A stretch of DNA of 64,000 nt from an uncultured Clostridia bacterium (GCA_964502145.1 CAZCVI010000002.1:117383-181382), one strand, 5' to 3'; positions 7,712 to 30,152 are shown, counted from the first letter of the stretch. Notes: generated by a model from the sequence alone, not told the origin. Numbers and translations are program-made.

Positions 7712-8056
7712 ATGGCCAACACACAGAGGATTTTGAAAGTTTATATGGATTCCCGCGGTAAAGAGCCTTTTATTGAGTGGTTGGAATCGATAAAGGACCG
7801 TAAAAACAGAAGTAGGATTATTACTAGATTGGATCGTTTGGAAGTCGGTAATCCCGGTGATTCCCGCCATTTGGGTAATGGGTTGTTTGAACTACGCTTG
7901 GACTTTGGCCCCGGCTTTCGGATTTATTATGGTGAAGATGACGCGGTGATCCTAATTTTGCTGGTGGGTGGCGATAAAGGGACGCAATCCGCAGATATCA
8001 AAAAAGCCCAATCTTATTGGAAGAGGTATCAGGAGGAAAAAAATGAGAAATTTTAG
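7712..8056 (+). CDS. higB: Type II toxin, RelE/ParE superfamily (HigB-like 'addiction module killer protein')
   Basis: MANTQRILKVYMDSRGKEPFIEWLESI...GNGLFELRLDFGPGFRIYYGEDDAVILILLVGGDKGTQSADIKKA is the typical HigB/TIGR02683-like pattern. The ATG at 7712 is preferred over the TTG at 7685. It overlaps the downstream antitoxin gene. Confidence 0.8.
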   Translation: MANTQRILKVYMDSRGKEPFIEWLESIKDRKNRSRIITRLDRLEVGNPGDSRHLGNGLFELRLDFGPGFRIYYGEDDAVILILLVGGDKGTQSADIKKAQSYWKRYQEEKNEKF

Positions 8057-8369
8057 AGATTATCTAAAAGATAAATTGGTCGATCAAGCAGAAGCAGTTT
8101 CTTATCTAAATGTCGCCCTGGAAGAGTATGAAAAAGATCACGATGCCGATGCTTTTTTGCTGGCACTACGTACAGTTACCGAGGCAAATGGCGGTATCTC
8201 TGAATTGGCAAAAAAAACCAATCTAAACAGGCAACACCTGTATCGGTCATTATCAAACAAAGGAAATCCCAGACTGATTACACTGGAAACAGTTTTGCAT
8301 GGACTGGGACTCCGGTTGTCTATTGTCCCTCTTGGAAACAAAAGTCTGGAGACGGAGCACAGAGTATAA
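8043..8369 (+). CDS. higA: Type II antitoxin, HigA-like HTH 'addiction module antidote protein'
   Basis: MRNFRDYLKDKL...AFLLALRTVTEANGGISELAKKTNLNRQHLYRSLSNKGNPRLITLETVLHGLGLRLSIVPL contains an HTH and matches the TIGR02684-like pattern. The ATG at 8043 overlaps the higB stop by 14 nt. Confidence 0.8.
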   Translation: MRNFRDYLKDKLVDQAEAVSYLNVALEEYEKDHDADAFLLALRTVTEANGGISELAKKTNLNRQHLYRSLSNKGNPRLITLETVLHGLGLRLSIVPLGNKSLETEHRV

Positions 8370-8407
8370 ATTTCCTGGCTGTTTCTTCCATCAAGTAGGG
8401 GCTTGAG

Positions 8408-8458
8408 CTGTCTCCCCCATTTTTCCAAGTAGAAAAACTGTGGCCAGTGCTTTACTTC
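8408..8458 (+). repeat. 51-bp direct repeat, copy 2 (downstream of higBA)
   Basis: 50/51 identical to 7617-7667. Confidence 0.95.
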
Positions 8459-8504
8459 TTTACTTTATATTTGTTCAATTGCAAGAAGTAAAGAAGTAAA
8501 ACAC
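8447..8504. repeat. 19-bp imperfect inverted repeat (large hairpin) overlapping the end of direct-repeat copy 2
   Basis: gtgctttacttctttactt (8447-8465) pairs with aagtaaagaagtaaaacac (8486-8504) at 18/19 complementarity, with a 20-nt loop. Confidence 0.8.
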
Positions 8505-8652
8505 CGTCCCCTTTTTTGGCCAAGGAATCAATAAATGGCAAATTAAAAGTGCTTCAGCGGGAACCGTATCACCTTTTTTGATCACGTTTTGGCCTTACCA
8601 ATGACATAAATTTTCATACCACCTTTCCTTTATCAAAACAGTCACGTTCACA

Positions 8653-8997
8653 CTATAATGAGAGTACTTTCTTTATGCCCTGTTCGACTTTTTTAAGATA
8701 TTTGGTACCAATTTTCCCGACGAATTCTGTCAATACCTCTTTATCAATGGTAATCAATTGGGAAACGTTTATGACTGAATCCTTTGTTAACGCGGACTCT
8801 TCTTTCTTTAAAAAAACGTTCCCAGGAGCTTCGGCCAATCTAAGATTGCTGGTTATAACCACCACCACAACTGTATTGATTTTACTCCTGTTAAAGGTAT
8901 CGGCCTGCATGACCAGCACAGGTCGTCTGTACCCGGGACCTGAACCTGAGGGTAAATCCAAATCAGCCCACCAAATGGACCCCCGCTCAATTACCAT
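8653..8997 (-). CDS. mazF: Type II toxin, PemK/MazF-family endoribonuclease
   Basis: MVIERGSIWWADLDLPSGSGPGYRRPVLVMQADTFNRSKINTVVVVVITSNLRLAEAPGNVFL is the canonical MazF/PemK N-terminal pattern. Confidence 0.85.
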   Translation of the reverse strand: MVIERGSIWWADLDLPSGSGPGYRRPVLVMQADTFNRSKINTVVVVVITSNLRLAEAPGNVFLKKEESALTKDSVINVSQLITIDKEVLTEFVGKIGTKYLKKVEQGIKKVLSL

Positions 8998-9233
8998 TCT
9001 TCTTTTTGCACTATTTTCAACTGTGCCTGATAAAGCCCTTTATCCATTACCGAGGGATTCGTTTGATCTTCATACAATGCATTTAACTGCTGTGTTACAT
9101 TTTCCTCTTTTTTATCCTTCAGATACTCTTCTATTGCCCTCGCATAAAATTCACTGCGAGTTACCTTTAATTGGTGGGCGATTTTCTCGGCCAATGCAAA
9201 TATATTATCCGGTATGTATACTGCTGTTTTCAT
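8991..9233 (-). CDS. Ribbon-helix-helix (CopG/MazE-like) antitoxin
   Basis: MKTAVYIPDNIFALAEKIAHQLKVTRSEFYARAIEEYL shows an RHH pattern. There is a 7-nt overlap with the downstream mazF-like gene. Confidence 0.75.
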   Translation of the reverse strand: MKTAVYIPDNIFALAEKIAHQLKVTRSEFYARAIEEYLKDKKEENVTQQLNALYEDQTNPSVMDKGLYQAQLKIVQKEEW

Positions 9234-9536
9234 GCTTAAAGTATAATCCCAATAGAGGCGAATGTCAAATAAAAAACTTCCCCACGTACCGATGGAAATT
9301 AAGAGGTTAGTTGCGCCAAACTAAGCCCAGGAATTTGGGACATGTCAGTGATTCTCATTATTCTCGTTATTCTTTTTCCTCCCATTCTTCGCATTTTGTC
9401 CTAGGGATTTCCAAACTTTTGGTGGTTGTTCCAGGTGAAACTACAAAACTTGCAGATAAAAGTTGCGTATATTATAGTGCTGATTCTAATGCCTAGTATA
9501 ATATATACTTTTAAAAACGAAATGGAGGTTATAAAT

Positions 9537-11594
9537 ATGGAACTATCTTTTATGATTGCAGGTGGTGTGGGAGTTTTTGTTTTTCTCCTGGTGATTGCAT
9601 CCTTCACTAATATTGGCCCGACCCAGGTGGGGTTAGTGATGAAACGGTTCTCTTTAAAAAAGCTTCCTGGAGATAACCCAATCGCGTTTAATGGGGAAGC
9701 GGGATATCAAGCCAAATTGCTAATGCCAGGGTTGCGTTGGAAGTTTATATTGTTATATCAAGTACGAAAATTCCCCTGGGTGCAAGTACCAGCGGGGGAA
9801 ATCGGCGTGATGATATCCCAGATCGGGGCTGCACTCCCTATCGGTGCCAAATCGGCGTTTTATAAAAACGAGTTCGGGAACTTCTCCGACTTAAAGAATT
9901 TTATCTCCCAAGGCGGCCAAAAAGGTGTGCAACGCCCCGTGCTACCTCCGGGAACATTAATTCCTTTTCATCCGGTGGCGTTCCTGGTAATTACCGCTAA
10001 ACAGGTGTATGGCGTACCAGTAGACCCAGAACTGGTCAGATTGGAAGCCAGAACGGGGCGCTTAATGCCCCAATCTTTTGGTCTTGAACCAGACCAATTA
10101 AAACTGGTGATGATCCAACCGGCACCGCATGGCGAAGGCAGTGAATTGATTGATATGGTGGGTATTGTCACTACCTTGGAAGGAGACCCATTGCCTTCTG
10201 GTGCCATTGCCAGCCGCTTGAATGATTTTTACGATATCCAGGAACTGGAAGACGCAGGCAAAGATGATTCCGCCTTAATCGAAGTCCTGCTGGGTAGTAA
10301 AAATGGCTTGCATAACAATTACCAGGATTATCAGGCTTTCTTGGAAAACGGCGGACGCATCGGATTGCAACATGACCCGTTGTTGTATGGTGCATACGCA
10401 TTGAATCCGTTCCTGGTTCGGGTGGAACGTATGCCCATGCTGGTGGTGAAACAGGGTGAAGTGGCTGTTATTAAAGGGTATGTGGGCTTGCCCACCAAGG
10501 ATACTTCGGGTGATAAGTTCAAGTATGGGTCCCTGGTACGACCTGGCCACCGCGGCATCTGGCAAGAACCGTTACGAACAGGTAAATTCGCTATCAATCC
10601 TCGCTGTTACCAACCCGTGATTGTATCCACGGCTATCCTAACATTGAATTGGGCAGAAGCAGTTTCGCGGGCCCATAACTTGGACCGGCAATTATGTCAA
10701 ATTGAAGCTAAAAGTAATGAAGGATTTGTCTTTAGAATTGATCTGCAAGTGCAGATACATGTGGCCGATACCCATACACCACGGGTGATTTCCATGGTAG
10801 GAACAATGGAAAATCTGGTCAACGAAGTATTGCAAGCAGCAGTAGGAAACCACTTCCGCGATAAATTACAAAGTATGCCCGCGGTTGATTTTATTAAGAA
10901 GAGACAGGAAGTTCAAGAACAAGCGCTTATCCATGTCCGGGATCATCTGGCTTTATATCAGGTGGAAACCCGTGGGGTTTATATTCAAGATGTGGTGTTA
11001 CCCAAAGAGTTGGTCAAGGTGTTAACAGAGCGAGAAATCGCCAATCAGAACATCGAAACCTTCAAAAAAGAAAAAGAAGCAGAAGATCAACGCATCGCCA
11101 AACAGCAGGCCATGGGTACGGCAGACATGCAGTTGGCATTAGCCAAGTCGCAGGTGGAAGTGGAAATCAACACCAACCGGGCCAAAGCCCGCAAAGCAGA
11201 AGCGGATGGTGAAGCCACATACATCGAGAAAACGGGTGCGGCGCATGGTGCCAAAATACGTGCGGTAGGGTTGGCTCGTGCCGAAGGTTACGAGGCACAG
11301 GTCAAAGCGTTGGGGCAAATTCCCACGGCATTAGTTAATGCGATTAATGCTCTGTCTGAAGGCAATATGAAGATCATACCCGATGTTTTAGTCACTGGCG
11401 GTTCAGGTTCTCTGGAAGGTTTGGCTGCGACCCTAATAAAAAAATTCACCCCTAAAGCAGAATATCCCGTGGAAGAGAAGCAAAAAAGCGAAGAAATAAT
11501 GGCCAGAACAGCCGATAGGGCTGAAGATAAAGCCATGGAAGATATCGCTTGGTCAGTAAGACCAGAATTCCCAGAGGAAGTACCCACCGTATAA
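9537..11594 (+). CDS. SPFH/band-7 domain protein, flotillin (YqiK)-like, long form (685 aa)
   Basis: ATG at 9537 with GGAGG at 9524-9528. There is an N-terminal TM helix (FMIAGGVGVFVFLLVIASF), then an SPFH-like core. The C-terminal region is Ala/Glu/Lys-rich, typical of flotillins (EREIANQNIETFKKEKEAEDQRIAKQQA...). Confidence 0.75.
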   Translation: MELSFMIAGGVGVFVFLLVIASFTNIGPTQVGLVMKRFSLKKLPGDNPIAFNGEAGYQAKLLMPGLRWKFILLYQVRKFPWVQVPAGEIGVMISQIGAALPIGAKSAFYKNEFGNFSDLKNFISQGGQKGVQRPVLPPGTLIPFHPVAFLVITAKQVYGVPVDPELVRLEARTGRLMPQSFGLEPDQLKLVMIQPAPHGEGSELIDMVGIVTTLEGDPLPSGAIASRLNDFYDIQELEDAGKDDSALIEVLLGSKNGLHNNYQDYQAFLENGGRIGLQHDPLLYGAYALNPFLVRVERMPMLVVKQGEVAVIKGYVGLPTKDTSGDKFKYGSLVRPGHRGIWQEPLRTGKFAINPRCYQPVIVSTAILTLNWAEAVSRAHNLDRQLCQIEAKSNEGFVFRIDLQVQIHVADTHTPRVISMVGTMENLVNEVLQAAVGNHFRDKLQSMPAVDFIKKRQEVQEQALIHVRDHLALYQVETRGVYIQDVVLPKELVKVLTEREIANQNIETFKKEKEAEDQRIAKQQAMGTADMQLALAKSQVEVEINTNRAKARKAEADGEATYIEKTGAAHGAKIRAVGLARAEGYEAQVKALGQIPTALVNAINALSEGNMKIIPDVLVTGGSGSLEGLAATLIKKFTPKAEYPVEEKQKSEEIMARTADRAEDKAMEDIAWSVRPEFPEEVPTV

Positions 11595-11924
11595 GTAAAA
11601 ATGGTTCAGAGTAAAGGGGCGGTCTTTTGATAAGGTCGCCCCTGTACCTGCACAGATTCCCCGCAGTTGGAGTCTGTTCCGTTTGCGTCATTTTTTCTTA
11701 CCGCCTAAGATTCACCATCGTATATCTATCGGCATACCTTTTTTTAAGAATCTAATCGTGGATTTAGGAAAAAAGTCAATGCCGTCGCGTGAAAAACAGA
11801 AGAAATTAACCCGTTGAAATAACAGGTGGAAATACATGTAATTCAGGTTTGTTTATTGGCATGATCTAAGGCAAAACAAGAAAACAATGCCTGAAAATCT
11901 AGAATAAATATTCATAAAATTTGC

Positions 11925-11953
11925 TTGACTGTTTTTTTTTGCTATGCTACTAT
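11925..11953 (+). promoter_or_regulatory. Putative sigma70-type promoter of the RiPP-like operon (TTGACT-17-TACTAT) with a T9 tract in the spacer
   Basis: TTGACT at 11925-11930, a 17-nt spacer gtttttttttgctatgc, and TACTAT at 11948-11953. It lies about 125 nt upstream of the rSAM gene. Confidence 0.4.
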
Positions 11954-12004
11954 TATTTTTAACCTCTTAAACAAAAACCTAGGTAAAATAAATTGGGTGA
12001 AATA

Positions 12005-12082
12005 ATGCAAGTTAAAAAAAGAGTTGTCAGGCAATGGGAAAACTTTTTCCAGACGACAATTTTCTCGGGTATGTGTAAATGA
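12005..12082 (+). CDS. Candidate small ORF (25 aa, MQVKKRVVRQWENFFQTTIFSGMCK), ATGA-coupled to the rSAM gene
   Basis: Not in the ORF track (shorter than 60 aa). GGGTGA lies 6 nt upstream of the ATG at 12005. Its TGA stop (12080-12082) overlaps the ATG (12079) of the downstream gene. Confidence 0.25.
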   Translation: MQVKKRVVRQWENFFQTTIFSGMCK

Positions 12083-13923
12083 TCGAAGCCAACGAAGTCA
12101 AAAAGCACCTCCTTTCCGTTTTAAAAGGTGAGTCGCTCCTGCTGATTGTTCCACCTTTTGTTAATACGCGGACTCCCATCATGGGTCCTCATATCCTGCA
12201 AACCATTGCCCAACAGCAGGGTTATGCAGTAGATATTCTATATGTGAATCTTCTGCTGGCCTCACTCATTGGTACCCAGTTGGTCGAAAGCATCAGCTAC
12301 GGTCAACCTTTTCGTTTATTAGGCGAGCGTTTATTTGCCCGTAGCGCCTATGGATTACCACCATTGGGAAAATTTCCAGAACTCTGTTTGGACGCGGTGA
12401 AATCGGTGTTCGGCGATAAAGAAGAATATCCCATGGAAGCCTTTGAATACAAGTATTATGAGACAACCGATTTCCAAGCCGATACGTACCACCACCTGGA
12501 AAATATCTGCTATGATCTGGTAACAGAGATATCAGAAACCATTGCGGGTATGAATTATCAGATGGTGGGTTGTTCGAGTAACTGGGAACAAAACAATTGC
12601 TCCATCGCCTTGATCAATGCGATCAAAAAACGTCGACCCGACATTATTACCTTGATGGGCGGCTCCAACTGCGAGGGGGAAATGGCAGAAGGAATTGCTT
12701 CACTCAGCCACTCTATTGATTATATCTTTTCCGGGGAGAGCGATCTTACCTTCCCTGACTTCTTAAAAAAACATAAAGCTGGCCAATTACCCTCGAACCG
12801 GATTATCGTGGGCGAACCGGTTACTGACCTGGATAATATCCCGCTCCCCTGTTATGATAGTTATTTCCAACAATCGCGTTGTTTTTTCGGCGCTCAGCCC
12901 AGCGGAGAAAATATCCTGGCCTATGAAACCAGCCGCGGTTGCTGGTGGGGACAATGTACCTTTTGCGGGCAAAATGGCAAACGGAGCCGTTTTCGCCCCA
13001 AAGCTGCCAAGAAAGTCGCTGCTGAATTGGGTGAAATGAATCGCCAGTACCCGGATAAACGCATTCTGCTCATAGATAAAGTGATGCCCATCTCTATCTA
13101 CAACGAACTGCTCCCCTTGTTAGAGCAAAACGGAGTGACAGCACCCATGAGCTGTGAACACCGGCCAGACCTATCCTTTCAAGAACTGCTGGACTTAAAA
13201 AAAGCCAATGTGAATATCATCAAGTTCGGTATTGAAACGCTGTCCAGCGGATTATTAAAACTAATGAATAAAGGCGTGATTGCCGCGCAGAATATTTCTC
13301 TACTTCGCCATGCTGCGGCCTGCGGCGTGCTAATCGATTGGAATATGCTGTGGGGGTTCCCCAATGACAGGTTAGAACACTACCAGGAGATATTGGAACT
13401 GCTGCCTTTACTCCATCATCTCTGTCCCCCTGCGGTATTTCGTCACCTTAGTTTGGATCGCTTTTCTCCTTATTTCGAGAAGCCCCAGAAATATAATATC
13501 CGTAACCTCCGTCCCTGGGCGGTGAACGATATGGTTTACCCGGAGTGGGCAGATATGGAGAAACTAGCTTACCGCTTCATCGGCGATTATCCCAGTGACT
13601 CTCACGACCACCCAGAAATAATCGGCGCCATCTCCCGAGAAGTGGAAAACTGGCAAGCTTCCAGAAAAGATGCCAAGTTGCATCTGAAGGCTGTCGGTTA
13701 TCATTATATTCTCCAAGATACCCGGAAAATAAAAGCGGGCTGCAAACCCCAATTACTGGATGAAGAACAAGCCAGGGCCGTGATGACACCATCCGCCTAC
13801 AAGACTTCAAGCGGACAAGAATGGGCGGTGACTGAAAAACTGGGGGTAGTGGTGGATGGTTTGTACGTTCCCCTGGTGACCGCTTCCCCAGAATTATTAT
13901 TACACTTTATGGAGGAATCATGA
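12079..13923 (+). CDS. B12-binding-domain radical SAM enzyme, RiPP-maturation C-methyltransferase-like (TIGR03975-like)
   Basis: N-terminal B12-like Rossmann segment (LLLIVPPFVNTRTPIMGPHILQTIAQQQGYAVDILYVNL). Cys cluster SRGCWWGQCTFCGQNG at nt 12940-12966. The architecture and the CWWG motif are typical of the rSAM family associated with NHLP/Nif11 precursors. Confidence 0.8.
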   Translation: MIEANEVKKHLLSVLKGESLLLIVPPFVNTRTPIMGPHILQTIAQQQGYAVDILYVNLLLASLIGTQLVESISYGQPFRLLGERLFARSAYGLPPLGKFPELCLDAVKSVFGDKEEYPMEAFEYKYYETTDFQADTYHHLENICYDLVTEISETIAGMNYQMVGCSSNWEQNNCSIALINAIKKRRPDIITLMGGSNCEGEMAEGIASLSHSIDYIFSGESDLTFPDFLKKHKAGQLPSNRIIVGEPVTDLDNIPLPCYDSYFQQSRCFFGAQPSGENILAYETSRGCWWGQCTFCGQNGKRSRFRPKAAKKVAAELGEMNRQYPDKRILLIDKVMPISIYNELLPLLEQNGVTAPMSCEHRPDLSFQELLDLKKANVNIIKFGIETLSSGLLKLMNKGVIAAQNISLLRHAAACGVLIDWNMLWGFPNDRLEHYQEILELLPLLHHLCPPAVFRHLSLDRFSPYFEKPQKYNIRNLRPWAVNDMVYPEWADMEKLAYRFIGDYPSDSHDHPEIIGAISREVENWQASRKDAKLHLKAVGYHYILQDTRKIKAGCKPQLLDEEQARAVMTPSAYKTSSGQEWAVTEKLGVVVDGLYVPLVTASPELLLHFMEES

Positions 13924-13950
13924 CTCCTCTAAAGAGCTGAAAAAACTACC

Positions 13951-16215
13951 ATGTTAGAAAATCCTATACTGAAACCCTGTTACGGTGCCGAATGTATCGA
14001 CACCGATCACGTCTTGTTAATATCGGAAAAAGACAATGTCTTATTAACCGGGAAACTTTACAACCTGGTACTGTCTGAAATTTGTGGCAGCACGCTTTCG
14101 TTGGCTGAAGTGGTGGACCGATTGCGTGGAAAACTTTCTGAAATGGAAATCTATTTAGCGCTGGAATCTCTGGAAAAGAAAGGGTACATCACTGAAGCTG
14201 CACCAGCACTACCACCAGAAACCTCTGCTTATTGGAGCAGCCAGGGGATGGAGATCAATCGGTTTCTCACGGTTTTGCAGGAAAAGACCATTACCCTTAC
14301 ATCTGTTGGTTCCCTTGCAACCGAATTATTTAGTCAGGCATTCGCTTTAACTGGCCTTAAATGCAGTGAAACCGGGGCGTTGCATGTTTATATTACCGAT
14401 GATTACCAGCGCCATCAGTTTGCCACCATCAATCAGGACGCTCTAAAAACCGGGCAGCCCTGGATGCTGGTTAAACCGGTGGGTGTGGAACTGTGGGTGG
14501 GGCCGATTTTCCTGCCAGGACAAACGGGTTGTTGGGAATGCTTGAAACAGCGCTTGGATATGAACCGTCCTGTAGATGCGTTTTACAAGACCCAGAAAAA
14601 CACCCGTCATCACCTATCTCTTCCCGCTGCTTTTTCCCCGCTTTCCTGGCAAATTGCCGCCAATATGACCGCGCTGGAGATAACCAAATGGCTTTATGCC
14701 GGGCATAATGAGCGGTTGGACGGCAAACTTATTTCTTTTGATACAGCGACCATGAACACCCAATCCCATGTACTGGTCAAACGCCCCCAATGCTCCTCCT
14801 GCGGCGAACCCGGTTATTTACGCGCAGAATCCCTTCCCATTATTCCGGTGCGACGATCGTCTTGCAGTGTGACCGCATTGGGTGGCTACCGCGAAGTAGA
14901 CCCCGAAGCTACTATTGAAAAATACCAGCATCACGTTAGCCCTATTACCGGAGTGATGCCGAAACTGGAACCGTATTACCATGTCAAAGGCACACCATTA
15001 TATAACTACTCTTCGGGTCGCAATATTGCACTGCGCAGTAAATCGTTATTCTGGTTGAACCAGCATCTCCGTAGCGGCAATGGCGGCAAAGGAAAAAATT
15101 GGACCCAGGCCAAAGTCGGGGCATTGTGCGAGGCGGTGGAACGGTATTGTTTCACCTATCACGGTGACGAACCCCATATCACCACCAGTTTAAAGAATTT
15201 AGATGGCAAGGGCATCCATCCCAATACCTGCATGAATTTTAGTGACACCCAATACCAGAATAGGGTAGAGAGTAACCGGAACTGCGGTAAATTTTATTCC
15301 ATGGTGCCTATTCCCTTTGATTCTGCCCGCGAAATGGATTGGACCGCCGTGTATTCGTTGACCCACCAGATGTTCAAGTATCTGCCCTCCTGTTTTTGTT
15401 ATGCCCAATATCCGGCTGAAGATGAATTAAATCTTTTTTCCTATCCAGACAGTAATGGGTGTGCCGCTGGGAATTCCATTGAAGAAGCCATATTACAGGG
15501 TTTTCTCGAACTCGTTGAACGAGATGCTGTGGCATTATGGTGGTACAATATGCCCCGCCGAACCGCCGTGGACCTCTCTAGTTTTAACGAACCTTATTTT
15601 TTACAATTAATAGACTATTATCAGTCATTACAACGAAGTCTTTATGTATTGGATTTAACCTCTGATTTAAACATTCCCACCTTTGGCGCTGTGTCTCATC
15701 AGCTAGATGGTGGCACACAGGATATTATTTTCGGCTTTGGTTCCCACGTGGACGCCCGGATCGCATTGGAAAGAGCACTGGTAGAATTAAACCAACTTTT
15801 ACCCATCGTTGATGGTCCCGAAGTTGATAGAGCCAAAGGGAAATATTTGACCCAGGATAATAACTTTCTCCATTGGTTAAAAACCGCGACCATGGAAAAT
15901 CAACCCTATTTAGCGCCCCAGCAAGACATCGCTCCCAAAACCGCAACGGATTACCCCCAGTTATGTGAACCCACCATCTATGATAGTCTGATGTTCTGTG
16001 TAAATACAGCAGCTCAACACGGCTTGGAAACATTGGTACTTGATTTGACCCGCCCCGACATCGGGCTTAGCGTCGTCAAGATCGTTGTGCCTGGTTTAAG
16101 GCATTTCTGGCAACGTTTGGCACCTGGACGATTGTATGATGTCCCCGTTCAGATTGGCTGGCTGGCTACCCCCCTCCATGAAGCCCAGTTAAATCCCATG
16201 CCTTTATTTATATAA
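13951..16215 (+). CDS. Fused E1-like (leader-binding, RRE-containing)/YcaO cyclodehydratase, PatD/TruD-type
   Basis: N-terminal winged-helix RRE-like segment (LSLAEVVDRLRGKLSEMEIYLALESLEKKGYI). E1-like part with the Zn-tetrad-like CWECLKQRL...CSSCG. YcaO part GKGKNWTQAKVGALCEAVERYC...NGCAAGNSIEEAILQGFLELVERDAVALWWYN. Pro-rich C-terminus LNPMPLFI. Confidence 0.85.
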   Translation: MLENPILKPCYGAECIDTDHVLLISEKDNVLLTGKLYNLVLSEICGSTLSLAEVVDRLRGKLSEMEIYLALESLEKKGYITEAAPALPPETSAYWSSQGMEINRFLTVLQEKTITLTSVGSLATELFSQAFALTGLKCSETGALHVYITDDYQRHQFATINQDALKTGQPWMLVKPVGVELWVGPIFLPGQTGCWECLKQRLDMNRPVDAFYKTQKNTRHHLSLPAAFSPLSWQIAANMTALEITKWLYAGHNERLDGKLISFDTATMNTQSHVLVKRPQCSSCGEPGYLRAESLPIIPVRRSSCSVTALGGYREVDPEATIEKYQHHVSPITGVMPKLEPYYHVKGTPLYNYSSGRNIALRSKSLFWLNQHLRSGNGGKGKNWTQAKVGALCEAVERYCFTYHGDEPHITTSLKNLDGKGIHPNTCMNFSDTQYQNRVESNRNCGKFYSMVPIPFDSAREMDWTAVYSLTHQMFKYLPSCFCYAQYPAEDELNLFSYPDSNGCAAGNSIEEAILQGFLELVERDAVALWWYNMPRRTAVDLSSFNEPYFLQLIDYYQSLQRSLYVLDLTSDLNIPTFGAVSHQLDGGTQDIIFGFGSHVDARIALERALVELNQLLPIVDGPEVDRAKGKYLTQDNNFLHWLKTATMENQPYLAPQQDIAPKTATDYPQLCEPTIYDSLMFCVNTAAQHGLETLVLDLTRPDIGLSVVKIVVPGLRHFWQRLAPGRLYDVPVQIGWLATPLHEAQLNPMPLFI

Positions 16216-16322
16216 ATAAGGATCGTAGATCATGTTGTGTACTATTTTCAACGTATTATCCAATAACTTTGGCGTAACACATAAGAAAAATAAAATATAA
16301 ACCAAACAAAGGAGATTTAGCC

Positions 16323-16820
16323 ATGAAAGAGAAAAATTTTACGATTACCGAAAACACGAAACCGCAGGATGTAAAAAAAATCAGGGACATTTATACCAAT
16401 TACCTGAGAGTCATGCTCAAGTGTGCTGAAGACCAAGCTTATTTTGTAGAATTTCAGAAGAACACCCGTGATATCCTGGTCAATGAAGTAGGGATGACCA
16501 TCCCGGAAGGAGTCCCAATTGTTCTTGATGACAATGTAAGATGGGCATCACTGGTCTTAAATGCAAAAGGTGCCGATGGTAGCAATTATGTGGTAAAAGA
16601 AATGGAACTGGGTATCAAAGCCTATGAAACTTGGGCTGATGGAGAACTTGAAGCGTCTATTACCCAACTTACCCATGAAGCCTGCGTTGAAGTTGATATT
16701 AAAGCCGAATTCAAGAATTTTACACCAGCAATTCGTATCCCATTTATTGATGTAACCAAGGATTTACTGGGTGAAATTAGCTTTAATAAGAAGACTGAAA
16801 TCGTTTTAACTTGTTGCTAG
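16323..16820 (+). CDS. NHLP (nitrile-hydratase-alpha-like leader) family RiPP precursor candidate, 165 aa, C-terminus ...EIVLTCC
   Basis: AAGGAG RBS 8 nt upstream. Residues ~30-85 (MLKCAEDQAYFVEFQKNTRDILVNEVGMTIPEGVPIVLDDNVRWASLVLNA) follow the NHLP pattern (A..D..F...L......L.E.G...PEGV...V.......LVL). It lies directly downstream of the rSAM and YcaO genes. Confidence 0.65.
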   Translation: MKEKNFTITENTKPQDVKKIRDIYTNYLRVMLKCAEDQAYFVEFQKNTRDILVNEVGMTIPEGVPIVLDDNVRWASLVLNAKGADGSNYVVKEMELGIKAYETWADGELEASITQLTHEACVEVDIKAEFKNFTPAIRIPFIDVTKDLLGEISFNKKTEIVLTCC

Positions 16821-16833
16821 CCGTTGTTGATTT

Positions 16834-16871
16834 AGTGGGCTTCCCGGTTTTTTTTTATCAGGAAGCCCACT
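16834..16871 (+). terminator. 11-bp perfect inverted repeat after the precursor gene (putative terminator/processing hairpin; T9 tract lies in the loop)
   Basis: agtgggcttcc (16834-16844) and ggaagcccact (16861-16871) with loop cggtttttttttatca. Confidence 0.4.
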
Positions 16872-16969
16872 GCGGACTCTGTAAAAAGAAGACTTTTATT
16901 AAACGTGGCTCTTGTTTGGGCATTGACTGATCTTAATTAATAATTTATACTTTAGTATACTTTTTATAT

Positions 16970-17034
16970 TATACTTATTTTCGTGTACTTATTTTCGTGT
17001 ACTTATTTTGTTGTATTTATTAGTGTATTTTTCT
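16970..17034 (+). repeat. ~14-bp degenerate tandem repeat (TGTACTTATTTTCG, ~4.5 units) upstream of the kinase gene
   Basis: tatacttattttcg tgtacttattttcg tgtacttattttgt tgtatttattag tgtatttttctg. Confidence 0.8.
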
Positions 17035-17060
17035 GTAGAAGAACTTTTACGAGGTGAAAT

Positions 17061-20000
17061 ATGAAAATTGCAGATTATTTTGTACTGGAGACGCTGTCAC
17101 ACGGACCAAGAGTTACCGTTTATAAAGCAAAAAAAGAAAACAATACTACCTCTGTTGTCTTAAAGGTCACCGAAAAAAAAACAGCCGAGAAACTTGATAT
17201 TGTTCGCTCCCTGGAACATGAATACCAATACATCAAGCAGGTGGATTCCGACTTTGTGATCAAAGGGATTCACTGGCAAGAGGAAAAAGAGGTTGCTTTT
17301 ATCGTATTGGAAGATATTGATGCTCAATCACTTAAACACTTCATCAAGGAGAAACAGCTCTCTATCCCACAGTTTTTGGACCTCGCCAAAAAGATTGTCG
17401 ATGGACTGGCAGCCATACACAGACAAAACATCATTCATAAAGATATCAATCCATCCAATATCATATGGAATCCAGAAACCGGTGGCCTAAAGATAATCGA
17501 TTTTAATATCGCCTCTAAATTCGATTTAAAATTGTCCTACCTGGGCAACCCGGAAAAACTTAAAGGCACCCTCGCTTATATCTCCCCGGAACAAACCGGT
17601 CGCATGAATCGGCGGGTGGACCAACGAACCGATCTCTATTCCCTGGGTGTCACTTTTTATGAAATGCTGACAGGCAAACTGCCCTTCGACTCAAACCAAC
17701 CCATGGAAATCGTTTATGCCCACTTGGCCAAAGAACCCCAATCCCCGCACCTACTAAATGAAGCTATCCCGGAAATTATTTCCCGGATCATCCACAAATT
17801 AATGGCCAAAAACCCAGAAGATCGCTATCAATCCGCTGAAGGCTTAAAATATGATCTGGAAAAATGTGCTCTATCACACCCGCAAACCTTTGCCCTGGGC
17901 GAAAATGATTACTCTGGCAAACTCCAAATCCCGGAAAAACTTTATGGACGTGAAGAAGAATTAGAACAACTTTTAGCAGTGTACCATCGTGTCAGTCAAG
18001 GCAACAAAGAAATGATCCTGGTGTCCGGATTCTCCGGTTCTGGGAAAACCACTTTGGTGAATGAAATTCATAAATCTATTGCCAAGGACCGGGGCTATTA
18101 TATCAGTGGAAAATTTGATCAGCTTCAACGCACGATTCCCTATTTTGCTTTTATCCAGGCACTTAACCAGTTCTGCCAGTTACTGCTGACTGAAAAACAG
18201 GAAGTGTTGAACCTATGGAAAGTAACTATCTTAAATGCCGTTGGCAAACTGGGGAGAATTCTGACCGATATTATCCCCCAATTGGAAGCTGTGATCGGGA
18301 ACCAACCGGAAGTTCCCGAAGTCAACGGTGACGATGCCAAAAAACGGTTTAATTATGTGTTTTTATGTTTTTTAAATGCCGTGGCCACTGTGGAGCATCC
18401 CCTGGTCATGTTTATCGATGATCTACAGTGGGCCGATCTGGCCTCCTTGAGCTTGCTGCAATTGATCATGGAAGACCGGAAAAGTTGCTATATATTCTTG
18501 ATAGGCGCTTACCGGGATAATGAAGTATCCCTCTCCCATCCCTTGATAACCACTCTGGCGGAATTAAAAAAACAAGCTATCCCCATCCATACTATTCCCG
18601 TTAAAAATCTCTCCCGGCAAAATGTGTCGGCGTTGCTAGTGGATACGTTTAAGACCCCAAGGAACAAAAACCAGGAGGAATTGGACGCATTGACCACTTT
18701 GATCTATCAAAAAACACAGGGTAATGCTTTTTTTACCCTTCAATTTATTGAAAACCTTTTTAAGGAAAACCTATTGTCGTTTGATTTTAAGAAATCCAGG
18801 TGGATATGGGATATCAAAAATATCGAAAAACAGAACATTACCGACAACGTGGTGGCATTACTGGTCAAAAAAATTAAAACATTGCCGGAAAAGACCCAGG
18901 AAGTTTTAAAACTGGCCGCCGCTATTGGCAATACCTTTGAATCGCCAACCTTGTCCGTTATTTCCGGGGCAACGGAAGCAGCCCATCGCCAAGCTTTGGA
19001 ACCCTCGTTGGCGGAACATCTGGTCTATCCCATAGATATAGGTATTTACAAATTTGTTCATGACCGTATTCACCAGGCTATCTACTCCATGGTACCCGAT
19101 GAAGACAAAAAACATTTGCATCTCAAAATCGGCAGATTACTGCTGGAAACATTTGACCTCCAGGATACATCAACACTTTCAAAAGAGACGGATCAGCGAA
19201 TTTTTGATACTGTTAACCATTTGAATATCGGAATTGACCTGATCATTGATGAACGGGAAAGAATTCATTTGGCCACACTGAACCTTAAAGCCGCTAAACA
19301 TGCCCGGGTAGCTGCCGCTTTTTCTATCGGTGTCGTGTATGTACGGACTGCCATACGTTTATTACCAGACAATAGCTGGCAGCAGCATTACGATCTGACT
19401 CTGTCCGTGTACAACGAGGCTGTGCTCGCCTCCTACTTATTCTTAAACCTAGCGGAGATGGAAAAATATGTTGAAATCATATTGTCCTCCACGCAAAATA
19501 TTTTACATCGCTCGGTGGCGTATGAATACCGCCTTTTGAGTTTAATCGGACAGAATAAATCCCAACAGGCCGTTGAAGCAATCTTAACCATTTTTAACCT
19601 TCTGGGAGTGACTATTCCCCCCGAACCCAGTGGTCCAGAAACAATGGCCATATTTGGAGAAGTTCAAACCATGTTAACCAGTATGAATCAGGAGACGATT
19701 GCCAATCTTCCCCTGATGACAGACGAAGCGAAATTGCAAGTGTTACGCCTTTTTTATATGGCTGGCCTTTCCTTTATGCATGGCCGTCCAACGGCATGGC
19801 CCTATGTGATCAGTAAAATGATCCATCTTATACTCACTTATGGCTTGACAGCGGAAACTCCCTATGTGATATCTCTTTATGGTGTGATCAAGGTTGTTAT
19901 GGGTGATTTTCCCAGTGCCTACCAATTGGGAGAAATGGCAGGGGAATTATTGGCCCGGGGTATCGGTAATCAAGCCATCCAGGTCAGAACCATCGGCATT

Positions 20001-22337
20001 ATCTGTTTTTATCTGCGGGGGTATAGAACCCATTTTAAAAAAATAGCCAAGGAGATGATGGATACCTACTCCCTGTGCATGGAAGTGGGTGATTTTGAAT
20101 ATGCGGGATATTCATTGGGCAATTACCTCTGGTGCCTCAATCGTACAGATACCCCGTTGGAAGAGGCATATCAGAAAGCATTGAATTGCCGGGAAACAGT
20201 CCTACAATTAAAACAACCCCTTCCGATACCACCCATATTCATTGAAATTACCATTTGCGAGAATTATCTCGGCAAAGCGGTTGATCCGGCTGTTTTGGCT
20301 ATCAACTATGATGAACTTTTTAAAAACCTACCGATTGGTTCTACTGGAATATTTAGTTGTGGGGCCAATATAAAACAAGCGATATTATTCTTCTTTTTTG
20401 AGCGGTACGATAACGTTTTGGAGTTAATGGTTTCAACTGAAAACCAATATAATGCCTTGAATATGCCGCTTACCTATTTTAGAAGCGATATCCACTTTTA
20501 TTTTACCCTGATCTATATTGAACTTTATACACGCAGTGAATCGGAAAGTGAAAAAGAAATCTGTATTACTAAGATAAACGAGAATAGAACTATTATGAAA
20601 CAGTTGGCTGAATTCGGCCCGGTAAATTTTCTGCATAAGTATTACTTGTTGGAAGCTGAATATGGCAGGGTTACCGGTAACAATAATCAAGCGCCAGAGT
20701 TCTATGACAAAGCCATAGAAACGGCTTATGAAAACGAATATATCAACGAGGCGGCCCTAGCCAACGAACTGGCCGCAAAATATTATATCCGGGAAAACCG
20801 CCGCAAATTCGCCACCTTCTACTTCATGGAAGCACGAAACTGTTATGTCCGGTGGGGCGCACTGGCAAAAGTCAAGCATTTGGATGACAACTATCCCAAA
20901 TACTTGAGTCTTGGACTCCCCGATTCTTCCTTGAGCCGCTCCTCCCTCTCCAGTACTTCAACCGGAACCGCTGGCGATTTCCTGGATGTCAAGAGTATCA
21001 TCAAAGCGTCGCAAACCCTGTCTGGTGAAGTTCAGTTAAAAAGCTTGTTGGAAAAATTAATGCAGATATTGATTGAGAATGCCGGGGCCCAAAAAAGTAT
21101 CTTGATCGAAAATAATGGCGGACGCTTGCTCATTCAAGCAGAAGGTAATACCAATGGTGTATCCGGTATTTTGCATGAGCTGCCAGTGGACGAGTCGGAT
21201 AAAATACCATTGTCCATCATCCATTATGTGGCCCACAGTAAACGGCAATTGGTTTTTGATAACCTATCTACAGACCCCAATTATACGACCGACGAATATA
21301 TCCAAAAAAATCAGCCCAAATCCGTGGTGTGTTTTCCCATCTTAAGTAAGGGGGAAGTTTCTGCCATTGTTTATTTGGAAAACAATCTGGTGGAAGGTGT
21401 ATTTACTCCAGCCCGGTTGGAAGTGCTCAATATGCTTTCGTCGCAAATCGCCATTTCAGTGGAAAATACCCATCTGTATGAGACGCTTGAAGAAAAAGTA
21501 AGGCAGCGTACTATTGCATTGCAAAAAGCACATCAAGAACTGGAGAAGAATCATAAAGAACTGGCGGAAAGTCATAGGAAAATCAATGACAGCGTGAACT
21601 ATGCCAGCAAGATACAAGAGGCGGTTTTACCCGGCGAGGAAATCCTCAACACCCTTCTTCCCCAACACTTTGTCTTCTATCGGCCCTGCTCGGTGGTCAG
21701 CGGTGATTTTTATTGGATCAAACCGGTGGGACAAAAAATAGTGGTGGCTACTGCCGACTGTACTGGCCACGGGATTCCCGGTGCCTTGCTAAGTATGCTG
21801 GGCATGACCTTTCTGAGCGAAATCGTGCCCCACCTGGCCGAACAAAACCAACTGAGCGCGGCCAATGTACTGGACCAATTACGCCAAAAAGTCAAAATCT
21901 CCTTGAAACAAGAAGGAAAGGTTCGTCAACAAAGAGATGGGATGGATATTGCGCTGTGCATCATCGATCCTGCGGATAAGCAATTGCAATATGCCGGTGC
22001 TTATAATCCGTTTTACTTGATCAAGGATAATCATCTTCTGGAAACAAAAGCAGACACCATGCCCATTGGTTTTTCCACCAAAGAACGCCCCTTTACCAAT
22101 CATGATGTCAGGTTTGAAAACGGGAGTATGGTTTACCTTTTCTCCGATGGGTACGCCGATCAAAACGGTGAGGATGGCGAGGTGAATTTTAGCAGGGTGA
22201 AATTTAAGAAATTGTTGACGGAAATCAGCAGGGAACCGGTAGCCAAACAAAAAGAAGTGTTAATCCAACGCTTCGAGCAATGGCGGGGTGACCTGCCACA
22301 ACGTGACGATGTCCTGGTCCTGGGAATAAGACTATAA
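17061..22337 (+). CDS. Multidomain signalling protein: Ser/Thr protein kinase - STAND/AAA ATPase - helical repeat region - GAF - coiled coil - PP2C (SpoIIE-type) phosphatase
   Basis: Kinase motifs HKDINPSNIIW, DFNIAS and GTLAYISPEQ. P-loop GFSGSGKTTL at nt ~18026-18052. GAF-like region LLEKLMQILIENAGAQKSILIE...VYLENN. The C-terminus (SGDFYWI...ADCTGHGIPGALLSM...RDGMDIALC...SDGYADQ...RDDVLVLGIRL) is SpoIIE/PP2C-like. Confidence 0.85.
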   Translation: MKIADYFVLETLSHGPRVTVYKAKKENNTTSVVLKVTEKKTAEKLDIVRSLEHEYQYIKQVDSDFVIKGIHWQEEKEVAFIVLEDIDAQSLKHFIKEKQLSIPQFLDLAKKIVDGLAAIHRQNIIHKDINPSNIIWNPETGGLKIIDFNIASKFDLKLSYLGNPEKLKGTLAYISPEQTGRMNRRVDQRTDLYSLGVTFYEMLTGKLPFDSNQPMEIVYAHLAKEPQSPHLLNEAIPEIISRIIHKLMAKNPEDRYQSAEGLKYDLEKCALSHPQTFALGENDYSGKLQIPEKLYGREEELEQLLAVYHRVSQGNKEMILVSGFSGSGKTTLVNEIHKSIAKDRGYYISGKFDQLQRTIPYFAFIQALNQFCQLLLTEKQEVLNLWKVTILNAVGKLGRILTDIIPQLEAVIGNQPEVPEVNGDDAKKRFNYVFLCFLNAVATVEHPLVMFIDDLQWADLASLSLLQLIMEDRKSCYIFLIGAYRDNEVSLSHPLITTLAELKKQAIPIHTIPVKNLSRQNVSALLVDTFKTPRNKNQEELDALTTLIYQKTQGNAFFTLQFIENLFKENLLSFDFKKSRWIWDIKNIEKQNITDNVVALLVKKIKTLPEKTQEVLKLAAAIGNTFESPTLSVISGATEAAHRQALEPSLAEHLVYPIDIGIYKFVHDRIHQAIYSMVPDEDKKHLHLKIGRLLLETFDLQDTSTLSKETDQRIFDTVNHLNIGIDLIIDERERIHLATLNLKAAKHARVAAAFSIGVVYVRTAIRLLPDNSWQQHYDLTLSVYNEAVLASYLFLNLAEMEKYVEIILSSTQNILHRSVAYEYRLLSLIGQNKSQQAVEAILTIFNLLGVTIPPEPSGPETMAIFGEVQTMLTSMNQETIANLPLMTDEAKLQVLRLFYMAGLSFMHGRPTAWPYVISKMIHLILTYGLTAETPYVISLYGVIKVVMGDFPSAYQLGEMAGELLARGIGNQAIQVRTIGIICFYLRGYRTHFKKIAKEMMDTYSLCMEVGDFEYAGYSLGNYLWCLNRTDTPLEEAYQKALNCRETVLQLKQPLPIPPIFIEITICENYLGKAVDPAVLAINYDELFKNLPIGSTGIFSCGANIKQAILFFFFERYDNVLELMVSTENQYNALNMPLTYFRSDIHFYFTLIYIELYTRSESESEKEICITKINENRTIMKQLAEFGPVNFLHKYYLLEAEYGRVTGNNNQAPEFYDKAIETAYENEYINEAALANELAAKYYIRENRRKFATFYFMEARNCYVRWGALAKVKHLDDNYPKYLSLGLPDSSLSRSSLSSTSTGTAGDFLDVKSIIKASQTLSGEVQLKSLLEKLMQILIENAGAQKSILIENNGGRLLIQAEGNTNGVSGILHELPVDESDKIPLSIIHYVAHSKRQLVFDNLSTDPNYTTDEYIQKNQPKSVVCFPILSKGEVSAIVYLENNLVEGVFTPARLEVLNMLSSQIAISVENTHLYETLEEKVRQRTIALQKAHQELEKNHKELAESHRKINDSVNYASKIQEAVLPGEEILNTLLPQHFVFYRPCSVVSGDFYWIKPVGQKIVVATADCTGHGIPGALLSMLGMTFLSEIVPHLAEQNQLSAANVLDQLRQKVKISLKQEGKVRQQRDGMDIALCIIDPADKQLQYAGAYNPFYLIKDNHLLETKADTMPIGFSTKERPFTNHDVRFENGSMVYLFSDGYADQNGEDGEVNFSRVKFKKLLTEISREPVAKQKEVLIQRFEQWRGDLPQRDDVLVLGIRL

Positions 22338-22345
22338 AATGGCCA

Positions 22346-22374
22346 TAAAAAGGAGGCACATAGCCTCCTTTTTA
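22346..22374. terminator. Bidirectional intrinsic terminator between convergent genes
   Basis: The sequence reads aaaaAGGAGGCacataGCCTCCTtttta. It has a 7-bp GC-rich stem (22351-22357 / 22363-22369) flanked by A-run and T-run. Confidence 0.7.
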
Positions 22375-22381
22375 TGTTTGA

Positions 22382-22633
22382 TTATTTAATTTTTTTCCTT
22401 TCCGCATTGTTTTTTAATGCATTGGCAATAATCCATTCTTGCTTTTGTTGATTGGCATCTTCAATGGTTCGGTACTTAAAAACTCCGTGAGGAAAATTCG
22501 GAGGACAAAGACGATTGGCTAAATCCCAGAGTTTAACTACCTGTTTATAGTATTCTTCGTCGGGGTCAAAGCACCAGAGGGCTCTTTCAGCCTCTTGAAA
22601 ATCTTTAAACTTTTGAATTGCCATTTGGGTCAT
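22382..22633 (-). CDS. Hypothetical 83-aa protein (possibly the C-terminal part of the upstream NTase-like gene, separated by a frameshift)
   Basis: MTQMAIQKFKDFQEAERALWCFDPDEEYY...GVFKYRTIEDANQQ. It overlaps the upstream ORF by 29 nt in another frame. A G5 run (C5 on + strand at 22634-22638) sits at the junction. Confidence 0.5.
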   Translation of the reverse strand: MTQMAIQKFKDFQEAERALWCFDPDEEYYKQVVKLWDLANRLCPPNFPHGVFKYRTIEDANQQKQEWIIANALKNNAERKKIK

Positions 22634-23099
22634 CCCCCTTTTGTCTCATAAGCTCATATAAAAAGAAGGCATCCCTTTTATCTTCAGATCGAAGAGTATC
22701 TTTTTTTAGTTTGAAAAGAGTCTGCGCTGTGGCCACATTTATTGGAATTTCATCAAAAGTCATAATCTCATATTCCAGATCATCATATGTCGCAAACTCT
22801 CCTAATCTGGCCATAATATCTATATAAAACCCATCTGGAGCGCCATATCGAATTACTGAATACTGATTTAATTCCTCAAAGGTAATATCAAAGATACATT
22901 CATCTTGAAAAACGTCATCTAGTGCTTTTTGAAGCTTCTTGATATTTTCGGAATTCATTTTTACAAATATATCAATATCCTGAGTAAGACGAGGTAAACC
23001 ATGGAGAATAACTGCAAATCCTCCGATTAGGATGTAGTCCACCTTTTCTTTACCTAGAGCTTTAAGTACTTTCAAAAATTTCTCGAATAATTCTGTCAT
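22605..23099 (-). CDS. Nucleotidyltransferase-fold protein (MNT/AbiEii-like small NTase)
   Basis: KVDYILIGGFAVILHGLPRLTQDIDIFV shows the G-x-x-A...hG..R.T.DiD pattern of minimal nucleotidyltransferases. Confidence 0.55.
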   Translation of the reverse strand: MTELFEKFLKVLKALGKEKVDYILIGGFAVILHGLPRLTQDIDIFVKMNSENIKKLQKALDDVFQDECIFDITFEELNQYSVIRYGAPDGFYIDIMARLGEFATYDDLEYEIMTFDEIPINVATAQTLFKLKKDTLRSEDKRDAFFLYELMRQKGDDPNGNSKV

Positions 23100-25769: not shown

Positions 25770-25866
25770 GTGAATCTCCTTTTTTACTGTGAAAGTATTA
25801 TTGTACCAGTAAATGATGTTATTGAAAAGAGTTATTCTTAAAAGAGTACTTACTGGATATACGGTA

Positions 25867-26961: not shown

Positions 26962-27011
26962 ATTTAAAAACTCCTTTTTTTTAATCTGTATCATCATTTT
27001 AATCTGTGTAA

Positions 27012-29254: not shown

Positions 29255-29356
29255 TTTAGAACTATTTCTGAAAACACTGAATTTTATTAAAATAAGCTTG
29301 TAAGATTTTTAAATATTTTATATGATATCAGGGTAAATAATGAATTGGAGGTTGTT

Positions 29357-30148: not shown

Positions 30149-30152
30149 CAAC

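Follow-up and report, generated by a model that had tools for sequence, protein, structure and literature searches.

In this study, we describe a conserved four-part gene cassette in a 64,000-nucleotide stretch of DNA from an uncultured Clostridia bacterium (CAZCVI010000002.1:117383-181382; hereafter the window, meaning the whole stretch). By homology, the conserved unit consists of a radical S-adenosylmethionine (rSAM) enzyme, a YcaO cyclodehydratase, an acidic small protein related to the nitrile-hydratase-alpha-like leaders (NHLP), and a giant kinase-like protein (Table 1). The identities of these four parts and their joint inheritance are established at the level of homology and synteny. 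We tentatively propose, with a probability of roughly 45%, that the small protein is modified on its C-terminal tail and works together with the kinase, and that it is not a secreted antibiotic.

Gene content and inheritance of the cassette

The sequence-only reading of this DNA had described a compact three-gene operon for a ribosomally made, post-translationally modified peptide (RiPP), ending at 16871. The first three open reading frames (ORFs) are indeed co-directional and closely set, with intergenic gaps of 27 and 107 nt. However, the proposed end did not hold, as the conserved unit runs on into the kinase gene, which on the evidence of comparative gene order belongs to it. The closest relatives of the YcaO (59-64% identity) keep the same gene order between entirely different flanks, namely an rSAM gene in one to three copies, the YcaO gene, the small-protein gene in one or two copies, and the gene for a giant Pkinase/AAA_16/GAF protein whose output domain varies among cassettes (SpoIIE/PP2C, HATPase_c, or HisKA-HATPase-REC-HTH). 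In loci L009 and L087, the small-protein gene is placed elsewhere within the cassette. Across the 85 independent loci holding YcaO relatives that were surveyed, kinase, small protein and rSAM were found in 7/7 loci of the window clade with enough flank. The kinase was also present in L091, L092 and L171, the last of which was found from the small protein alone, making 10 independent cassettes in all. Of the 44 wider YcaO loci flanked on each side by 8 kb or more, 25 contained a close relative of the kinase. Kinase genes lay downstream on the same strand in 39 of 47 cases (p = 1e-16 against 0.25) at a median gap of 1.9 kb, and the similarity scores of YcaO and kinase co-varied (Spearman 0.42, p = 0.007). 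As for members of the small-protein family found by sequence alone, P0122 has a truncated YcaO on one side and a 1761-aa kinase on the other, and P0161 lies in an rSAM-small protein-YcaO-rSAM block.

Moreover, Bacteroidota (Aquimarina, Microscillaceae, Bacteroidales) encode the same small-protein family and YcaO beside ~1,360-aa Pkinase/cyclase-like/AAA_16/TPR proteins, and these partners pass the TIGR03903 model with 990 and 1051 bits (cutoff 705.75). That two distinct giant kinase/STAND architectures accompany the same enzyme-substrate pair is the strongest argument that the kinase link is functional.

No protease, exporter or azoline oxidase was found either in the window or in some 10 related cassettes, the flanks of which are otherwise unrelated. 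With regard to export in particular, no ABC transporter/peptidase or HlyD-type gene was seen among the called neighbours in the window and in L005, L006, L087-L090, L171 and L172, as judged by the Pfam labels of the neighbours and not by the TIGR03794, TIGR03796 and TIGR03797 models. The Pfam scan of the neighbours agrees with the earlier statement that no SagB-type dehydrogenase, protease or exporter is adjacent. There was no plausible hidden short precursor ORF upstream of the rSAM gene or in the cassette gaps, and in an Rfam scan of 9000-23000 no match passed the threshold and no cobalamin riboswitch was seen.

The SPFH/Band_7 gene upstream (9426-11594) was considered as a further part of the cassette and rejected, since it is present only in copies of the same genome and not in related cassettes. 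Directly 3' of its stop codon lies a G+C-rich inverted repeat at 11613-11643 (AAAGGGGCGGTC...GGTCGCCCCT), at which the SPFH/Band_7 transcript probably ends and which would mark the cassette's upstream boundary. Locus L005 contains, at 1909-2064 on the minus strand, a 51-aa gene with a lanthipeptide-leader domain (PF28317), plus extra rSAM genes, and some cassettes may therefore process additional short peptides.

The enzymes, the small protein and the kinase

The second gene of the cassette had been read as a PatD/TruD-style fusion of a RiPP recognition element (RRE), an E1-like domain and YcaO, and this assignment was confirmed throughout. The protein has a PF21084 winged helix at residues 7-82 (39.4 bits, cutoff 24.1), a ThiF-like region and a full-length YcaO domain (307 bits), and it passes both TIGR03604 (271.6 bits, cutoff 219.25) and TIGR03882 (158.7 bits, cutoff 36.9). 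It aligns end to end with LynD (4v1t; residues 7-752, E = 2e-191, 641 bits), and also with MusD and TruD. The acidic motifs CEAVERY (E394, E397, R398) and ELVERD (E520, E523, R524, D525), which from YcaO structures we take to be those that bind ATP and Mg, are invariant in 22 relatives, and the ATP-binding residues thus appear to be in place. By these matches, the window YcaO belongs to the azoline-forming, E1/RRE-fused LynD/PatD type.

The identification of the rSAM enzyme also stood. It matches TIGR03975 ('RiPP maturation radical SAM C-methyltransferase') over residues 21-559 with 437.1 bits (cutoff 281.85) and the Pfam family Radical_SAM with 39.4 bits, and the CWWGQCTFC cluster occupies residues 288-296 (window 12940-12966). 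For its proposed N-terminal B12-like domain there is, at residues 149-228, a match to the B12-binding family PF02310 that stays below the cutoff (20.5 bits vs 32.1), in a region well conserved among relatives. The three Fe-S cysteines (C288, C293, C296) are kept in 16/16 relatives. The spacing is Cx7Cx2C in 14 of these 16, and the window enzyme has Cx4Cx2C by way of a 3-residue deletion, which is common only to the L090 enzyme. The unconventional Cx7Cx2C motif has been reported in PoyB/PoyC and in the bottromycin beta-C-methyltransferases (PMC5682303; PMC11285071).

The third gene encodes, as noted previously, an acidic 165-aa protein (pI 4.85) that ends in KKTEIVLTCC, and it has two internal cysteines (C34 and C121) where only one had been counted. 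Ser, Thr and Cys make up 17% of its last 70 residues. An exhaustive HMMER search gave a family of 44 representatives at 50% clustering, most of which align nearly full length over ~160 aa; a word-indexed protein search returned the query alone for the single sequence and three proteins for the family profile. The family has a conserved N-terminal block (NY..LM..CA.D...R..F..NP..YLN..VGM.IP..V.I.LD....RWP.VYI.), a variable middle and a conserved C-terminal block (PFFD...D.L.E.KF.D..EIILS.C.), and in the family alignment its C-terminal half is conserved rather than hypervariable. There is no Gly-Gly cleavage site in the window protein or in the family consensus, which, together with the long part that follows the leader-like region, is as had been described.

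The NHLP leader pattern that had been reported for this protein stays below threshold in the single sequence and holds at the level of the family profile. The window protein scores 18.7 bits against TIGR03793 (cutoff 50.9; E = 1.2e-3, residues 29-82), 23/29 family members touch this model at E <= 0.1 (best E 8.8e-8), and two short-form relatives, scanned singly, reach 42-47 bits. Against PDB sequences, the family profile matches nitrile hydratase alpha 1v29_A (C-terminal part) with E = 2.5e-4 at profile positions 34-100, and the NHLP leader chimera 8tb1_A, a solved structure, with E = 0.01. The window protein falls into no Pfam family and into no NCBIfam family above cutoff, and on profile evidence its family sits in the NHLP clan, uncovered by any Pfam or NCBIfam model. 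The profile is matched end to end, and always C-terminally, in proteins of 158-357 aa from the window clade and Bacteroidota. Short cyanobacterial relatives of 104-144 aa, encoded beside the same YcaO subfamily, consist of the NHLP part and a short Cys-rich tail only. An AlphaFold2 model of the window protein placed the whole chain in one compact fold, with a predicted local distance difference test (pLDDT) of 92.7 and a predicted template modelling score (pTM) of 0.82, the last block being the least confident (72), and fold searches with this model found no match among solved structures. A 209-aa second paralogue (L006 9034-9663; L007 7774-8403) keeps the N-terminal and middle parts and ends in ...NNIPPFSQEKEGGEE, without a Ser/Thr/Cys tail; it is possibly a non-substrate partner.

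The C-terminal tail was assessed in 70 unique full-domain members, with counts over 68 tails. Its pattern comprises a Glu (54/68), three hydrophobic residues, a Ser/Thr anchor (66/68) and exactly two residues after the anchor (50/68), which are rich in Cys, Thr and Ser; a few tails carry one to three extra residues past the motif (STCAA, TTCVPI). Cys is present in 54 of the tails and missing from the other 14 (e.g., LTTT, ATTT, LSSA). The terminal TCC itself is therefore not kept in homologues, and what is kept is the pattern E-hydrophobic x3-S/T-x-x. Conservation applies to an azoline-competent Ser/Thr/Cys tail that lies 2-3 residues from the end, and it does not call for a free C-terminal Cys.

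The kinase protein is laid out as a Ser/Thr-kinase domain (residues 9-263), an AAA_16/STAND NTPase (293-475), a GAF domain (1326-1466) and a SpoIIE/PP2C domain (1558-1757), the ~850 aa between AAA_16 and GAF being unannotated. Its match to TIGR03903 (136.3 bits, cutoff 705.75) covers the AAA_16 region only (293-699), a region that also gives a weak nSTAND6 match, and the best match of the PP2C domain is SiaA (208 bits). The kinase domain (17061-17850) is without the GxGxxG loop (SHGPRVTV), its catalytic loop reads HKDINPSN, with the Lys at D+2 changed to Asn, and DFG is changed to DFN; the domain retains the beta-3 Lys, both catalytic residues (Asp and Asn) and SPE. This atypical pattern, H[KR]DINPxN plus DF[NSHD] (vs HRDxKxxN and DFG), runs across the window clade (L005, L006, L009, L087-L090). 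DFG is intact in the cyanobacterial relatives, and in the Bacteroidota TIGR03903 partners nothing departs from the canonical motifs.

Pairs of SiaC (PF09345) and DUF6272 genes adjoin giant kinase genes in L088 (7118-7513 and 20783-21794), L172 (1923-5012), L110 (573-2777) and L119 (6432-7370), accompanied in L172 and L110 by stand-alone SpoIIE-like phosphatase genes. By these neighbours, the kinase family may feed a SiaABC-like partner switch with its PP2C output. The partner-switch genes were rejected as part of the cassette, since they are found beside giant kinases with and without YcaO and none is present in the window.

With regard to expression signals, the promoter predicted at 11925 was no better than chance: 13 sites of its kind were found in the region against 10.8 +/- 3.6 expected, and promoter rules may differ if the window stems from an FCB-group organism. 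The strong Shine-Dalgarno sequence of the small-protein gene has no comparable counterpart upstream of the rSAM gene, a contrast consistent with the small protein being translated above the enzymes. The strong inverted repeat that had been taken as the end of the operon is a real and stable hairpin (-27 kcal/mol, z = -4.27, 0/200 shuffles as stable), but it is neither a canonical intrinsic terminator, its T-run lying in the loop with no 3' U-tract, nor the end of the unit. In 6/7 cassettes, the last small-protein gene is followed by an equally strong hairpin whose sequence is unrelated (0/100 shuffles reach it), and no comparable hairpin was seen in the other intergenic gaps of the tested cassettes. 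It probably attenuates or stabilises between the small gene and the kinase gene. The tandem repeat that lies between the downstream promoter-like site and the kinase start codon is possibly an operator.

Table 1. Cassette genes and associated sequence features, with window coordinates
Feature	Coordinates	Strand	Size, score or position
Sigma-70-like hexamer pair TTGACT, 17 nt, TACTAT, with TG	11925-11953	+	9/12 matches
Class B (cobalamin-type) rSAM C-methyltransferase, PoyB/PoyC-like	12079-13923	+	614 aa; TIGR03975 match
Fused RRE winged helix/E1-like/YcaO azoline-forming cyclodehydratase, LynD/TruD/MusD type	13951-16215	+	754 aa
Shine-Dalgarno AAAGGAG, strong	16308-16314	+	8 nt upstream of the small-protein ATG
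Acidic small protein, probable substrate	16323-16820	+	165 aa; NHLP/nitrile-hydratase-alpha-like part ~15-100, beta-rich extension, C-terminal tail
Stem-loop, 11-bp G+C-rich stem, T-rich loop	16834-16871	+	just past the small-protein stop codon
Promoter-like site TTGACT, 17 nt, TATACT, best of the region	16923-16951	+	10/12 consensus matches only; upstream of the kinase gene
14-nt tandem repeat TACTTATTTTCGTG, 3.6 copies	16972-17021	+	Tandem Repeats Finder (TRF) score 79, 91% matches
Signalling protein, fourth cassette member	17061-22337	+	1758 aa; domain matches, synteny

Elsewhere in the window, toxin-antitoxin-like pairs (Gp49/HigB-like with HI1420-like; PemK-like with an 80-aa partner) lie upstream of the cassette at ~7712-9233, and a weakly AbiEii/DUF6036-like 164-aa protein with an 80-aa partner is encoded downstream at 22360-23099. 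A second, unrelated biosynthetic locus is formed by a nonribosomal peptide synthetase (NRPS), a single 6272-aa ORF on the plus strand at 38071-56889 with Condensation/AMP-binding/PP-binding repeats. The GC skew is +0.2 to +0.27 across the minus-strand gene block at 24000-38000 and turns negative at ~38 kb, at the beginning of the plus-strand NRPS gene. Also encoded are BACON and S46 peptidase domains, a hint of the FCB group.

Possible function and its alternatives

We propose that the 165-aa NHLP-derived protein is the substrate of the cassette, its NHLP-like part docking on the RRE/E1 part of the YcaO. Using ATP, the YcaO would cyclodehydrate the tail E-I-V-L-T-C-C to form one or more azolines, the likeliest sites being the near-invariant Ser/Thr anchor and/or the Cys that follows, and these azolines would not become azoles because no oxidase is present. 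The PoyC-type B12-rSAM enzyme would C-methylate nearby side chains, probably in the aliphatic I-V-L stretch. The product, either the modified protein or a tail fragment, would stay in the cytoplasm, with no cleavage and export as an antibiotic, and it may serve as a ligand or switch, most plausibly for the STAND/TPR or GAF part of the kinase protein, which would signal via its PP2C output, or via histidine-kinase/cyclase outputs in relatives. The hairpin and the strong ribosome-binding site would let the small protein exceed the kinase in amount. It is conceivable, though less likely than not, that RiPP chemistry is used here for intracellular signalling in the full sense, that is, with an azoline-bearing and C-methylated tail on a folded ~165-aa protein as the dedicated ligand or switch of a kinase/STAND/GAF protein. 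If this is true, the state of the tail could report metabolic or redox condition to the kinase, as the modification needs ATP, S-adenosylmethionine, cobalamin and an oxygen-sensitive Fe-S enzyme, and the same signalling logic would explain the whole kinase-linked class of thiazole/oxazole-modified microcin (TOMM) systems (NHLP-Burk and TIGR03903 systems).

Several points weigh against a tail-modified protein that works with the kinase. The modification of the small protein, its site and its contact with the kinase are inferred. The activity of the kinase is itself uncertain, as judged from the missing Gly-rich loop, catalytic-loop Lys and DFG Gly, and the Cx4Cx2C spacing of the rSAM enzyme is non-standard, departing from the Cx7Cx2C of its family. 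The AlphaFold2 model was built on 29 sequences, neither the NHLP nor the nitrile hydratase fold came back from the fold searches, and in the model the last strand is buried and would have to unfold to enter the YcaO active site. Searched from the kinase side, the cassette lies upstream only for the closest relatives (>= 58% identity) and almost never at <= 47%. Such one-way linkage fits a generic regulator recruited to a biosynthetic cluster. That the kinase family is wholly dedicated to YcaO systems was rejected, since most relatives at <= 47% identity are unlinked; from its relatives, the kinase is a member of a large paralogous family, particular branches of which have been recruited. Lastly, the proteases and exporters of proteusins can be encoded elsewhere, and their local absence is therefore weak evidence.

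The sequence-only reading had left two options, a large peptide product or a modified small folded protein. The second is favoured by the compact AlphaFold2 fold, the conserved C-terminal half and the lack of export or cleavage genes in ~10 cassettes, and the large secreted peptide is disfavoured. It is quite possible, though, that the cassette encodes a conventional proteusin RiPP, in which the C-terminal part, from the last few residues up to ~70 aa, is methylated and heterocyclised, the protease and exporter are encoded elsewhere, and the kinase regulates expression only. An NHLP-clan precursor together with TIGR03975 and TIGR03882/TIGR03604 is the very co-occurrence defined by Haft (2010). 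Nostatin A, which is secreted, is made with an NHLP leader, a YcaO and a class B rSAM C-methyltransferase. The several tandem small-protein paralogues and the one to three rSAMs per locus seen in relatives are RiPP-typical, a hairpin 3' of the precursor gene, as in the 6/7 cassettes, is a common feature of RiPP operons, and the kinase family is mostly not YcaO-linked. Against such a product, however, neither a Gly-Gly nor any other recognisable cleavage site is present, the supposed core is conserved and is predicted to lie within one compact fold, and its Ser/Thr/Cys content (17% of the last 70 residues) is low. In addition, some family members of 300-357 aa carry the same tail, none of the ~10 cassettes has a protease, exporter or oxidase, and most of the kinase outputs (PP2C, cyclase-like, histidine kinase) do not bind DNA.

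Two further explanations are much less probable. A conflict or anti-phage system, with the STAND NTPase/kinase sensing an invader and the modified protein acting as a toxic effector or immunity component, seems very unlikely. The AAA_16 domain with its weak nSTAND6 match and the kinase N-terminus do resemble STAND defence architectures, toxin-antitoxin and AbiEii-like genes are nearby in the window, and the cassette moves between unrelated genomic contexts. However, the PADLOC models matched by the kinase domain (PD-T4-6, Mad6, MkoA) see a kinase domain of the generic kind only, neither the YcaO nor the small protein matches any, the rSAM match is weak (27 bits vs PDC-M51A), and no nuclease, pore-forming or NADase effector is present. 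The GAF, PP2C, histidine-kinase and cyclase outputs, like the SiaC/DUF6272 neighbours, speak for physiological signalling. We give the least credit to the idea that the 165-aa protein is no substrate at all and is instead an accessory protein, scaffold or chaperone for enzymes that act on an unrecognised short peptide or on the kinase. It would suit a protein predicted to be fully folded, the protein-like nature of NHLP-like modules and the one L006 paralogue without a Ser/Thr/Cys tail, but the cassette gaps hold no candidate short ORF, the C-terminus of the kinase carries no such tail motif, and the most conserved feature of the small-protein family is precisely the azoline-competent tail at its extreme C-terminus. 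Moreover, the short cyanobacterial relatives next to the same YcaO subfamily are ordinary precursors with a leader and a Cys-rich tail.

Relation to known systems

The window YcaO resembles the cyanobactin heterocyclases LynD, TruD, PatD and MusD in its RRE winged helix, E1-like and YcaO parts and in its intact acidic ATP/Mg-site motifs. In contrast to cyanobactin clusters, there are no PatA/PatG proteases and no cyanobactin-type precursor cassettes, and the likely substrate is NHLP-derived with a single conserved C-terminal site. In bottromycin biosynthesis, a YcaO makes a C-terminal Cys-derived thiazoline. Bottromycin also offers a likeness in the beta-methylation of aliphatic residues by Cx7Cx2C B12-rSAM methyltransferases (PMC5682303). 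It differs in its short precursor with a follower peptide, its stand-alone YcaOs without E1/RRE fusion, its macroamidine, proteases and exporter, and in having neither an NHLP domain nor a kinase. McrA, which had been offered as an analogy, is similar in that YcaO and B12-rSAM enzymes act on a folded protein (YcaO/TfuA thioglycine; B12-rSAM methylations). At least with regard to family membership the analogy fails, as the window enzymes reach 134 bits for TIGR03266 (vs 365) and 35.5 bits for TIGR04014 (vs 360), and, unlike in McrA modification, the YcaO is of the azoline-forming, E1/RRE-fused type and no TfuA occurs among the called neighbours.

The cassette shares with the proteusins (polytheonamides, aeronamide, landornamide, nostatin A) an NHLP-clan N-terminal domain and a class B rSAM C-methyltransferase from the PoyB/PoyC family, whose unusual motif is Cx7Cx2C, and with nostatin A in particular the combination of such a methyltransferase with a YcaO cyclodehydratase. 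In proteusins the leader is cleavable, the core is variable or Ser/Thr/Cys-rich, and an epimerase, oxidase, protease and/or transporter is usually present, whereas in the window the C-terminal part is conserved and predicted to be folded together with the rest, none of those genes is found, and a giant kinase is conserved instead. The nostatin A cluster likewise departs from the window in its Ser/Thr/Cys-rich core, its oxidase and transporters and its lack of a kinase. By its score below the TIGR03793 cutoff, the window small protein falls outside strict proteusin-precursor membership, and its homology to nitrile hydratase alpha holds at the profile level. Even as a conventional proteusin, the system would be unusual in its conserved core, its lack of a cleavage motif and its shortened Fe-S motif.

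Neither classical proteusins nor McrA, which the earlier reading had named, are the closest precedent. The closest described system is the NHLP-Burk or 'TOMM system kinase/cyclase' class (TIGR03795, TIGR03882, TIGR03903). In NHLP-Burk systems, the NHLP-related precursors lack Gly-Gly and end in Cys or Cys-Cys, the cyclodehydratase is fused, a large Ser/Thr kinase is present and a transporter is absent (Haft, Basu, & Mitchell, 2010; PMC2887384). The window shares the lack of Gly-Gly, the modifiable C-terminal residues (TCC) and the fused cyclodehydratase (TIGR03882), and the Bacteroidota loci with its small-protein family carry true TIGR03903 proteins. It differs in that its small protein does not match TIGR03795 (cutoff 41 bits) and has an extra beta-rich domain; in the family, 1/29 members matches this model, with E = 0.022, the full-domain relatives do not, and the short forms reach 19-25 bits. 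Further differences are the kinase, which fails TIGR03903 (136 vs 705.75 bits) and has GAF and PP2C domains instead of a cyclase-like domain, the addition of one to three PoyC-type rSAM methyltransferases, and the single copy of the small-protein gene in place of the tandem or fused precursor pair of NHLP-Burk, pairs or multiples being found in L006, L090 and L012-L017.

Attention was drawn to kinase-linked TOMM clusters in 2010, and NCBI annotation names them as TIGR03903. The literature searched reports no product or function for NHLP-Burk and no product, target residue or kinase role for kinase-linked TOMM clusters, and the full-text literature contained no experimental study of any such system; most subscription journals lie outside the scope of this search, and absence from it is not proof. 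The cassette is more interesting than an ordinary RiPP operon and is not categorically new, since its kind has been recognised bioinformatically and is uncharacterised. Should the small protein remain intact, it would carry azoline formation and radical C-methylation over from peptides to a folded signalling protein, and a new protein family and a new predicted fold would be added. The cassette is a compact and experimentally tractable four-gene example with a clear predicted modification site, in which it may be asked why a RiPP-type YcaO is wired to a giant kinase.

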